Below are positions 39,402 to 42,169 of a stretch of DNA of 64,000 nucleotides, in pieces (within the stretch, counting starts at the first letter, position 1; every line of letters begins with the position of its first letter). Position numbers and translations under genes: made by a program. The notes under the pieces were generated by a model. The model searched no databases and was not told the DNA's origin. It saw only the letters and a program-made list of their open reading frames with translations. Origin of the DNA: Pseudomonadota bacterium (GTDB taxonomy: Archaea > Thermoplasmatota > SW-10-69-26 > JACQPN01 > JAJPHT01); NCBI GenBank assembly GCA_021325135.1, contig JAJPHT010000013.1, positions 1 to 64,000 of the forward strand, in the 5' to 3' direction.

Positions 39402-39581
39402 ATGGCGGCGAGGAAGGACCTCTTCTGCAAGGACTGCCGCTACTGGTACGGCGCGGAGGACGACGAGTACGGCCCGTGCCAGATCAAGCAGTCGCGGGGC
39501 GACCGGCGCTTCGTGACGTTCGGCGGCCACCCTTGCGACGAGCCGCTGGCCCTCAAGGAGTACGGGGTGCAGCGCGAGTGA
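39402..39581 (+). CDS. 59-aa Cys4 metal-binding protein
   Basis: CKDC..W...GPC...HPC; GTGA overlap with the GNAT gene. Confidence 0.75.
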   Translation: MAARKDLFCKDCRYWYGAEDDEYGPCQIKQSRGDRRFVTFGGHPCDEPLALKEYGVQRE

Positions 39582-40402
39582 GCGTCGCCCTCCGCCGCAT
39601 GCGCGCCGACGAGCTGGCCGCCGCGCCCGACCTCCTGCGCCCCGAAGGGTGGGGCTTCGAGGTGGAGGAGCTTCAACGCCTGACGCGCCTGGGCGGCTCG
39701 GTGGGCGGCTTCGACGAGCAGGGGCGCCTGCTGGCGTACCTCACCTTCGTGGACCTGCCGCCCGTCCGCTGGATCGGCAACGTCGTCGTGCACGCCTCGC
39801 TGCGCGGCAAGGGCGTCGGCGCGAAGCTCGTGGAGGAGGCGCTCCGCGACGCGCCGCGCGCCGGGCTCTACGCGGTGGAGAAGGCCGTGACGCTCTACGA
39901 CCGCCTGGGCTTCGTCCCCTGGGGCGGCGAGGCGTGGGCGCACCGCGCGACGCAGGCCAGGCCTCTGAGACCCAGCGTCACGCAGCCCATGGGCCGGGAC
40001 GACCTGCTGGAGGTCGCGCGGCTCGACCGGCGCGTCTCGGGCATGGACCGGGGCTACCTCCTGCGCGAGCTTCTCAAGGCGTACCCCGAAGGCGCGCGCG
40101 TCGCCCGCAGCGGGAACCACCTCGTGGGCTTCGGCTTCGCGAAGACGAGCCCCGACGTGACCGAGATCGGGCCCGTGGTCGCGACGACGCCCCGCGCCGC
40201 GGAGGACCTTCTCGACGCGCTCATCGCCGGCTCGCCGGGGCCCCACGAGGCGACCGCGCTCTCCGCCAACCCCAAGGCGATGGAGGCGCTGCGCGAGCGC
40301 GGCTTCTTGCCCAGCTTCCGCACGATCATCATGGTCCGCGGCGCGCCCCCCGAGTGGCGCCCGCAGCAGATCGTGGCCGCCGCAGGCCTGGAGAAAGGGT
40401 GA
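39578..40402 (+). CDS. Two-domain GNAT acetyltransferase (YitH-like)
   Basis: VVVHASLRGKGVG motif A, LYDRLGF, C-terminal DR....DR...IGPVVA domain. Confidence 0.85.
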   Translation: MSVALRRMRADELAAAPDLLRPEGWGFEVEELQRLTRLGGSVGGFDEQGRLLAYLTFVDLPPVRWIGNVVVHASLRGKGVGAKLVEEALRDAPRAGLYAVEKAVTLYDRLGFVPWGGEAWAHRATQARPLRPSVTQPMGRDDLLEVARLDRRVSGMDRGYLLRELLKAYPEGARVARSGNHLVGFGFAKTSPDVTEIGPVVATTPRAAEDLLDALIAGSPGPHEATALSANPKAMEALRERGFLPSFRTIIMVRGAPPEWRPQQIVAAAGLEKG

Positions 40403-40406
40403 CCGC

Positions 40407-41648
40407 ATGGCGCTCATGGTCCACAACACGCTCACCAACCGCCGCCAGGAGTTCGTCACGCGCGAGCCCGGCCACGTGCGCATGTACGTCTGCGGGCCCA
40501 GCGTCTACGACGAGAGCCACCTGGGGCACGCGCGCAGCTACGTCGCCTACGACGCCATGAAGCGCGTCTTCCTCGCCAAGGGGTGGCGCGTGACGCACGT
40601 GCAGAACTTCACCGACGTGGAGGAGAACGTCGCCGCGCGCGCCGAGAAGGCGGGCATGGCGCCCCTGGCCTACGCCACCGCCATCATCTCGCGCTTCTAT
40701 CGCGACATGGACGAGCTTCGCATCCTGCGCGCCGACCACTACCCGCGCGTCTCGGAGCACATCCCCGACATCCTGCGCATCGTCGAGGGGCTCAAGAAGA
40801 AGGGCGTCGCGTACCGCTTCGACTGCGGCCCGCGCGACCACGTCGTGGGCGAAGGGTGCGACATCTACTTCGACGTGACCAAGGTCCCCGACTACGGCGC
40901 GCTCATCGGCACCAACGTCGAGGAGCTGACCGTCGAGCGGCCCACCGAGGCGGGCGACCGGCGCAACCCCCTGGACTTCGCGCTCTGGAAGAGCCGCGAC
41001 GACTGGGGCGTCGTGTGGGACTCCCCCTGGGGCAAGGGGCGCCCGGGCTGGCACGTCGAGTGCGCGGCCATGAGCACGAAGTACCTGGGCTTCGACTTCG
41101 ACCTGCACGGCGGCGGGCTCGACCTCGTCTTCCCGCACCACGAGAACGAGCGCGCCATCGGCGAGGCCTACGGCGGCACGACCTACTGCGAGCACTACCT
41201 CCACAACGGCTTCGTGACCGTGGGCAACGAGAAGATGTCCAAGAGCCTGGGCAACTTCGTCACGCTGCGCGAGATGCTCAACAAGCACGAGCCCGAGGTC
41301 GTGCGCGCGTTCCTCCTCTCTGCGCACTACCGCGCGGCGCTCAACTACGACGAGCCGAGCATCGCGGCGGCGCAGGCGCGCGTCGGGCGCTGGCGCGCGC
41401 AGGTCGCGCGCCTGCGCCGCGCCGCGCACGGGCAGGCCGCGGCGCCCGCCCTCGCCGCGCCCGTGTGCGGGGAGCGCGACGCCTTCTGGGAGGCGCTGGA
41501 CGACGACTTCCACTTCGAGCGCGCGCTGGACGCGCTGGACCGCGCCCTGGAGGCCGCCTCGACGCTGGAGGGCCCCCAGGCCGCCGCCGCGCTGCGGGCG
41601 CTCCAGGAGATGGGCGCCGCGGTCGGGCTCCTCTGGGACCTGACGTGA
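40407..41648 (+). CDS. CysRS paralog lacking the C-terminal anticodon-recognition domain (MshC-like architecture)
   Basis: YVCGP, HLGH, DFALWK, GRPGWHVEC, FPHHENE, KMSKS; ends at VGLLWDLT, 413 aa. Confidence 0.88.
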   Translation: MALMVHNTLTNRRQEFVTREPGHVRMYVCGPSVYDESHLGHARSYVAYDAMKRVFLAKGWRVTHVQNFTDVEENVAARAEKAGMAPLAYATAIISRFYRDMDELRILRADHYPRVSEHIPDILRIVEGLKKKGVAYRFDCGPRDHVVGEGCDIYFDVTKVPDYGALIGTNVEELTVERPTEAGDRRNPLDFALWKSRDDWGVVWDSPWGKGRPGWHVECAAMSTKYLGFDFDLHGGGLDLVFPHHENERAIGEAYGGTTYCEHYLHNGFVTVGNEKMSKSLGNFVTLREMLNKHEPEVVRAFLLSAHYRAALNYDEPSIAAAQARVGRWRAQVARLRRAAHGQAAAPALAAPVCGERDAFWEALDDDFHFERALDALDRALEAASTLEGPQAAAALRALQEMGAAVGLLWDLT

Positions 41649-41710
41649 GGCCGGCCACGAAGCGCGACCCGCCGGAACGCTGAAGCCCCCCGCCCGCTCC
41701 TCATCGCCCC

Positions 41711-42169
41711 GTGGCCGACGACGCGCCCACGGTCATCGCCATCATCCAGGCGACGCTGGCCCCCATCTTCCTCGTGAGCGGCGGCGCCATCTTCCTCAAC
41801 TTCACCCAGGCGCGCCTCTTCCGCGTCATCGACCGCCTCCGCCAGATCGGCAAGGAGCTGGACCACGCGAGCCCCAACGTCGAGCCCGACCTGCGCTGGC
41901 AGCGCGACCGGCACCTCGTGCGCGCCGTCATCCTGCGCAACGCCATCCTCTTCGGCGTGCTGGTCATCGCGTTCACCGTCATCACCGCGCTGCTGCTCCT
42001 CTTCAGCGGCGTCGAGTCGGGCGTCGGCACGGGCCGCTGGCCCCTCCTCACCTTCGGCCTCGCCATGGTGGCCTTCGCCGTCGCGCTGGGGCTCGTCGTC
42101 GTGGACGCCTTCCTCTCGGTGGCGGCGGCGCGGCACGCGGCGCGGGAGTTCCACGAGGGGCGGCGGTGA
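41711..42169 (+). CDS. DUF2721-like membrane protein
   Basis: IQATLAPIFL..G, RLFRVIDRLR, three TM helices. Confidence 0.75.
   Translation: MADDAPTVIAIIQATLAPIFLVSGGAIFLNFTQARLFRVIDRLRQIGKELDHASPNVEPDLRWQRDRHLVRAVILRNAILFGVLVIAFTVITALLLLFSGVESGVGTGRWPLLTFGLAMVAFAVALGLVVVDAFLSVAAARHAAREFHEGRR

Follow-up and report, generated by a model that had tools for sequence, protein, structure and literature searches.

Synthetase paralogs that have been reused as ligases are a known kind, with MshC, EpmA, GluQ-RS and the amino acid:carrier protein ligases as examples, and among paralogs of cysteinyl-tRNA synthetase (CysRS) a review assigns a known function to MshC and CysRS* only (PMC9437257). MshC and MshD act in mycothiol synthesis in Actinomycetota; archaea have not been found to contain mycothiol, and for most archaea the thiol chemistry is unknown (PMC7278568). 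Here we describe a three-gene module in a 64,000-nucleotide stretch of contig JAJPHT010000013.1 (positions 1 to 64,000; the window) from an archaeon placed in Thermoplasmatota. It encodes a four-cysteine microprotein, a tandem GNAT acetyltransferase and a short CysRS paralog. The module resembles the MshC-MshD pair (TIGR03447; PDB 3C8Z) in having a CysRS paralog of ~410 amino acids (aa) without the anticodon domain, an intact Zn site and a tandem GNAT partner; a microprotein partner occurs in the archaeal module only. Sequence comparison leads us to believe, with a probability of about 0.7, that the paralog is a tRNA-independent Cys ligase that works in one process with the GNAT and the microprotein and moves Cys to an acceptor other than tRNA. 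In the literature, of which our coverage was incomplete, we found no description of this three-part archaeal module, and an Atlas search gave look-alikes without names only, at 0.91. The genes concerned are as follows.

39402-39581, plus strand: microprotein of 59 aa with four cysteines (Cys9, Cys12, Cys26, Cys45); core member of the module
39578-40402, plus strand: tandem GNAT acetyltransferase of 274 aa (PF00583 and PF18014; PDB 3DDD type)
40407-41648, plus strand: CysRS paralog of 413 aa, with catalytic, CP1 and helical domains and without the anticodon-binding domain
41711-42169, plus strand: DUF2721 membrane protein (PF11026); co-oriented passenger
61097-62515, minus strand: full-length housekeeping cysS; context gene, Cys-tRNA supply

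A preliminary description of this locus, made from the sequence alone, had the open reading frame coordinates, the 59-aa four-Cys protein, the two domains of the GNAT, the GTGA overlap shared by the microprotein stop and the GNAT start, and the 4-nucleotide gap between GNAT end and paralog start, all of them correctly. The paralog stop lies 62 nucleotides before the DUF2721 start. Domain searches also bore out its reading of an anticodon-less CysRS paralog beside a complete cysS: in a profile search the paralog matched the CysRS catalytic model at E 1.7e-108, and DALR_2 and CysS_C were both matched by cysS and neither by the paralog. C29, C219, H244, E248, HLGH and KMSKS are retained, and TDVEEN stands as read. 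The two genes, which are 44% identical, are the only CysRS-family genes in this genome. The two-Cys insert to which the same description drew attention is present in the paralog, but it is restricted to close relatives.

The short CysRS paralogs

The closest homologs of the paralog are ~390-450 aa long and share TD[VI]EE where the canonical DDK stands; those with names are from Thermoplasmatota. The anticodon-binding domain (PF23493) is absent from the window paralog and from the whole short family. Our pooled CysRS-family set contained 173 distinct short and 171 full-length sequences. The number of short homologs rules out a one-off truncation or pseudogene, which the preliminary description had named among the findings that would refute it.

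In a tree of 107 sequences, a single branch (Shimodaira-Hasegawa-like approximate likelihood ratio test, SH-aLRT, 100) had all short copies on one side and 50 full-length enzymes from archaea and bacteria on the other; a paralog that ends in a low-complexity tail carried the label full-length but groups with the short copies. Since this branch separates short from full-length copies, recent duplication of the local cysS is ruled out and, on this tree, cysS is not the nearest relative of the paralog. Long branches could contribute to the grouping of the short copies. The phylogeny proposed in the preliminary description, against both CysRS and MshC, was obtained for its CysRS half, as MshC was not among the sequences. 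That description had further taken the CGPSVY motif of the paralog as a sign of an origin independent of MshC. This argument is weak, because the housekeeping cysS of the window itself reads CGLTPY (and TDVDDR), nearer the MshC-style motif than that of the paralog. In one genome (G402; genome, contig, locus and family labels are ours) two paralog-type copies (contigs C7 and C19) accompany a full cysS, by duplication or as a binning artefact.

Residues that are at least 90% conserved in both the short and the full-length sets include C29, H38, G40, W215, H216, C219, H244, H245, E248 and KMSKS. Among the short copies the Zn ligands C29, C219 and H244 do not vary, and KMSKS has become KLSKS in family f25. 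Because these motif residues are conserved in both sets, Zn-dependent Cys binding and adenylation by the paralogs are probably intact. Conserved in the full-length enzymes only are, among others, K165, S167, Q251, R328, N369, R382, N385 and a GARV-type CP1 loop, which a crude pattern found in 1 of 173 short vs 76 of 171 full-length sequences. N369 aligns with the Asn of the DDFN motif of E. coli CysRS, which we take to be a contact with the tRNA body. The CP1 loop of CysRS reads the first base pair (1:72) of tRNA-Cys (PMC5389517). As judged from the alignment, tRNA-facing residues of the short copies are eroded.

Conservation of the three-gene module

Of 154 distinct loci, 147 have the GNAT gene after the microprotein gene, and the other seven all belong to family f23; these counts include kin, which are not independent, so that there were fewer events than the counts suggest. 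Among 20 class-level relatives, 18 have an intact microprotein-GNAT-paralog order and the remaining two are interrupted by contig ends; the order recurs in families f24 and f25. Beyond Thermoplasmatota, named members of the microprotein family include Methanosuratincola, Methanomethylicus and one Njordarchaeota protein. Methanomethylicia, a second phylum, have the full trio with a glutaredoxin-like CxxC gene just upstream, and a Njordarchaeota contig carries microprotein and GNAT. The GNAT link, whose absence from related genomes the preliminary description would have taken as a refutation, is therefore a conserved one, with the trio in two phyla.

The microprotein was found in 47 genomes of a 401-genome phylum sample. 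The distribution of the GNAT orthologue nearly equals that of the microprotein, apart from its absence from f23 (0/9); f27 and a few others have more distant relatives of the GNAT and no microprotein. The full trio is present in families f1-f6, f24, f25 and f32. Two partial arrangements were seen: f23 has microprotein and paralog and lacks the GNAT in all nine genomes, and f10 has microprotein and GNAT and lacks the paralog in both of its genomes (99% and 94% complete). Save for one contig-break case, no genome was seen with paralog and GNAT and without the microprotein, which is the sole module member present in every arrangement. Within Thermoplasmatota, two CysRS genes are the rule in microprotein-positive genomes, the exceptions being f10 and an assembly with a mere fragment of the short copy, and a single CysRS was present in 14 of 14 microprotein-negative genomes tested.

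Since truncation and gene order are kept in many genomes, and change in the microprotein is mostly synonymous (8 synonymous vs 1 non-synonymous codons within the genus), a chance arrangement is excluded, and the three-gene module is real and conserved. It is carried by one methanogen group and by many uncultured archaea of soils and sediments. Both anaerobic methanogens and genomes of 1.0-1.5 Mb have kept the module, which suggests a basic function.

In a large lineage the microprotein-GNAT pair lies after aIF5B with no adjacent paralog, and a second paralog-type match is found elsewhere in those genomes. In one case of a split module the paralog was located upstream of rps6e and eIF2gamma, which suggests that an ancestral trio lay in an L7Ae-S28e-L24e-ndk-aIF5B-S6e cluster and was later split by rearrangement. 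Across the loci L055:8001-11345, L060:6210-12230 and L064-L125, the paralog stands just before rps6e-eIF2gamma and, in the related lineage, microprotein-GNAT comes after aIF5B. A suspected hidden tRNA in the gap before the L055 paralog proved to be an ordinary tRNA-Ala, and the 52-aa open reading frame there is not the microprotein.

These split and partial arrangements could be explained without a common pathway, by a degenerate or regulatory CysRS copy merely inherited beside a microprotein-GNAT pair, or by a copy that activates another amino acid. One large order and f23 carry the paralog separately from the pair, f10 has none, and the long paralog branches and the KLSKS of f25 would suit a gene of this kind. 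We consider this explanation very improbable, however: two phyla share the gene order, genomes in which the genes have separated retain the paralog, the microprotein-negative Thermoplasmatota tested had no second CysRS, and the Zn ligands do not vary.

Cys-tRNA supply and the tRNA context

The microprotein was present in 29 of 61 genomes of the Methanomethylicia class. In these 29 the short copy was the only CysRS-family gene found, and SepRS was found in 26 of them; Methanomethylicia with a full-length CysRS lacked the microprotein. As full cysS or SepRS accompanies the module, Cys-tRNA comes from another source in nearly every well-assembled module genome. The paralogs are annotated in databases as cysteine--tRNA ligase, a label that is probably wrong for the Methanomethylicia short copy because this copy is the only CysRS-family gene in most carriers, beside the SepRS route.

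We next consider that the paralog might still act on tRNA, either by charging it via the acceptor arm, as CysRS* does, or by cysteinylating a tRNA nucleoside in the manner of GluQ-RS, with the GNAT acetylating the Cys-RNA and the microprotein as specificity subunit. Compared with canonical CysRS (TIGR00435; PDB 1LI5, 1U0B, 8QHP), the paralog shares the catalytic motifs and scores 394.1 bits against an equivalog cut-off of 340, over model positions 1-394 of 466; some lineages have retained DDK or DEK, and in one order the module halves flank the aIF5B/rps6e-eIF2gamma translation cluster. It differs from canonical CysRS in the missing CysS_C, the eroded tRNA-facing residues and the separate branch. 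The precedent is CysRS* of Desulfobacterales, likewise a second cysS copy without the anticodon domain and with an altered CP1 loop (PMC5389517). The archaeal module is linked to GNAT and microprotein instead of selB*, and no selC* tRNA or SelD was found (selB* itself was not searched). The paralog CP1 loop differs from the PTVS of CysRS*; an apparent likeness to it was dropped, as the register was off by one.

This genome has one tRNA-Cys, a canonical one (GCA), tRNA counts are ordinary (38-42), and no tRNA gene was linked to the module at the loci examined; relaxed ARAGORN matches were noise. SelD above the cut-off was found in none of five module-bearing genomes, so that UGA recoding would have no purpose. 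Together, the single canonical tRNA-Cys, the ordinary counts and the missing SelD rule out UGA recoding with a selC*. Given also that the GNAT bears an acetyl-CoA motif, and hence is not a Fem-type aminoacyl-tRNA transferase, we regard a tRNA-dependent route as unlikely.

The GNAT and the comparison with mycothiol synthesis

The GNAT profile matched PDB 3DDD, a PF18014 tandem GNAT listed merely as a putative acetyltransferase, along its whole length (E 7e-27). With E values up to 0.01 allowed, it had no match to the mycothiol synthase (MshD) model, and among the 60 best matching structures, headed by 3DDD, none was a chain called mycothiol synthase. Acetyl-CoA motif A (R76-G81) is intact in the N-terminal domain, and a C-terminal Gly is conserved. 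By these comparisons the GNAT, which has the tandem fold in common with MshD, is not MshD itself, nor, because of the acetyl-CoA motif, a Fem-type transferase. Two more tandem GNATs of the same broad family are encoded on contig C44 of this genome (55819-56610 and 75179-75943) with no microprotein or paralog near.

On the MshC model TIGR03447 the paralog scored 282.5, against a cut-off of 485.1 and below the 299.1 of the housekeeping cysS. The MshA/MshB/Ino1 front end of mycothiol synthesis was not found in this genome (94% complete), which had no PIG-L (MshB and BshB type), no Ino1 and no MshA above the cut-off, and BshC was absent from all five genomes searched, this one included. PIG-L occurred in 11 of 40 module-bearing vs 4 of 23 other genomes and was absent from two single-contig Methanomethylicia genomes. 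The MshC score and the missing PIG-L, Ino1, MshA and BshC rule out a true mycothiol or bacillithiol pathway. What survives of the MshC/MshD analogy in the preliminary description is thus the pairing of an anticodon-less CysRS with a tandem GNAT; by these scores and matches neither protein is its actinobacterial counterpart, and the mycothiol-like amino-sugar acceptor is not upheld.

Without the mycothiol front end, the same idea becomes a new low-molecular-weight or lipid-linked thiol: the paralog would ligate Cys to a common amine, such as free glucosamine or its phosphate, a polyamine or an aminolipid head group, the GNAT would N-acetylate the product, and the microprotein would be a metal-binding accessory subunit of the ligase. 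The domain loss and enzyme pairing are those of MshC/MshD (PMC7278568, PMC9437257), and the module has suitable neighbours: in Methanomethylicia the glutaredoxin-like gene directly upstream, in f25 and f6 a metallo-beta-lactamase hydrolase and a glycerophosphodiesterase, respectively, downstream, and in f23 a BCP-like peroxiredoxin close to the paralog. The GNAT-less f23 would parallel unacetylated bacillithiol. However, these redox neighbours vary between lineages, the known thiol genes are missing here as described above, with PIG-L patchy among module genomes, and f10, with GNAT and microprotein and no ligase, is left unexplained, as is the extreme conservation of the microprotein. We therefore consider such a thiol possible, though doubtful.

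The microprotein as candidate acceptor

The four cysteines of the microprotein (C9-x2-C12-x13-C26-x18-C45) are invariant, and W15, Y16, G17, E19, G24, K29, R32, T39, G41, D46 and E47 are nearly so (K29 99%, R32 98% and T39 100% in 169 distinct homologs). Compared with Methanosuratincola copies, the microprotein core is 67% identical, the paralog 41% and the GNAT 30%; by this measure the microprotein is the most conserved member of the module across phyla. The family is closed, with 46 matches among 1.84 billion representatives. A search against the PDB gave no match, and the single-sequence structure model was too low in confidence for use (predicted local distance difference test, pLDDT, 47.6). 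Cys spacing is similar to HiPIP (PF01355), but the match of the window microprotein (20 bits) is below the gathering score of 22 and covers the first three Cys only, and the protein has no space for an export signal; sub-threshold HiPIP matches were obtained for 30 of 39 members. The microprotein is a probable binder of Zn or [4Fe-4S]. At L037 (genome G004), 41-79 and 184-222 are two partial repeats of its N-terminal CxxC segment, upstream of the intact gene.

We tentatively favour the microprotein as a substrate or carrier that both enzymes share, at somewhat below even odds, because it is always present, is kept with each enzyme when the other is lost, and is highly conserved. It is favoured as acceptor also because no acceptor-making gene co-clusters; among the neighbourhoods examined, no acceptor-making enzyme clustered with the module across lineages. 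A remark made in passing in the preliminary description, that the microprotein may be the target, fits the distribution best.

For a tRNA-independent Cys ligase we envisage the following steps. The paralog would bind Cys at the Zn site and form cysteinyl adenylate (Cys-AMP) with ATP. With tRNA charging presumably lost, it would transfer Cys onto a non-tRNA acceptor, perhaps the microprotein, and then probably at the near-invariant Lys29, as EpmA loads EF-P. The GNAT might next act on the microprotein with acetyl-CoA and cap the new cysteinyl alpha-amine, following the logic of MshD; it might instead acetylate the same site of the microprotein as an alternative modification. EpmA (a LysRS2 paralog that lysylates EF-P) and the amino acid:carrier protein ligases (SerRS paralogs) are alike in mode of working only, as synthetase paralogs without the tRNA-binding domain that charge a dedicated small protein with an amino acid (PMC9437257). 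These are class II enzymes, whereas the archaeal paralog is a class I CysRS and its module includes an acetyltransferase. The candidate acceptor, a four-Cys protein predicted to bind metal, has no homology to EF-P or acyl carrier protein.

A three-chain complex prediction gave a microprotein-paralog contact score of 0.48, compared to 0.00 for the best control and 0.00 with the paralog replaced. The runs agreed in at least 89% of contacts, and partner pLDDT was at least 76. The mark used for such predictions was reached by 58 of 80 solved pairs and by 2 of 110 mismatched pairs; at scores of 0.60 or under, it was reached by 7 of the 80 solved pairs and by both mismatches. The prediction lends weak support to a microprotein-paralog contact.

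Several points weigh against a tRNA-independent ligase with the microprotein as its acceptor. At complex scores of this size passes are often wrong, and the predicted binding would suit a substrate and an accessory subunit equally. Nor would linked genes be needed if the acceptor were a ubiquitous metabolite. In three lineages redox genes (glutaredoxin-like, BCP peroxiredoxin and metallo-beta-lactamase hydrolase) adjoin the module, which is what a small thiol would lead one to expect. A CysRS that lacks the anticodon domain is still able to charge tRNA (PMC5389517), and the Methanomethylicia copies retain the canonical DDK motif. Families f10 and f23 are one lineage each, so the two partial arrangements amount to two events.

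The most specific form of the proposal is a protein-tethered N-acetyl-cysteinyl thiol arm, in which a class I synthetase paralog would attach Cys at Lys29 of a microprotein that binds metal, and the GNAT would cap it. We judge this rather unlikely as it stands. If true, it would be mycothiol chemistry on a protein instead of a sugar, common to Thermoplasmatota and Methanomethylicia. The paralog would be the third CysRS paralog of known function, after MshC and CysRS*. As all three proteins are small and soluble, the question can be put to the test directly, both in E. coli and in vitro.

Neighbouring genes

The DUF2721 gene follows the paralog as first described. A functional role for it is not upheld: DUF2721 beside the module was matched only at this genome's own loci, so that its adjacency is not conserved and it is ruled out as a module member and is a passenger. 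After it, at 42254-42925 (plus strand), comes a gene for subunit D of an A/V-type ATP synthase (PF01813), and no further ATP synthase gene is evident alongside. A 138-aa gene at 38603-39019 (minus strand) is divergent upstream of the module in several genomes of the order, and its homologs match PF27352. A FixC-like flavoprotein gene and then a FixX-like ferredoxin gene, judged from sequence, occupy 33073-34691 (plus strand) and are unrelated to the module.

In other lineages the neighbours differ. In Methanomethylicia (L283:5106-5980, L330-L345) the microprotein is preceded by a conserved protein of ~175 aa and by a glutaredoxin-like one of 95 aa (mostly CTRC), and moaE converges downstream. 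After the paralog come the metallo-beta-lactamase hydrolase in f25 (L136-L138, L143) and the glycerophosphodiesterase in f6 (L046-L053). Near the f23 paralog (L179-L182, L131-L145) are the BCP-like peroxiredoxin and a thiolase, and a radical SAM gene converges on the microprotein. Two loci have pairs inserted inside the module, PIN-like at L054:1124-1824 and RelE/ParE-like at L127:7160-9180, judged by eye; we rejected these as pathway genes, as they look like toxin-antitoxin-type mobile genes.

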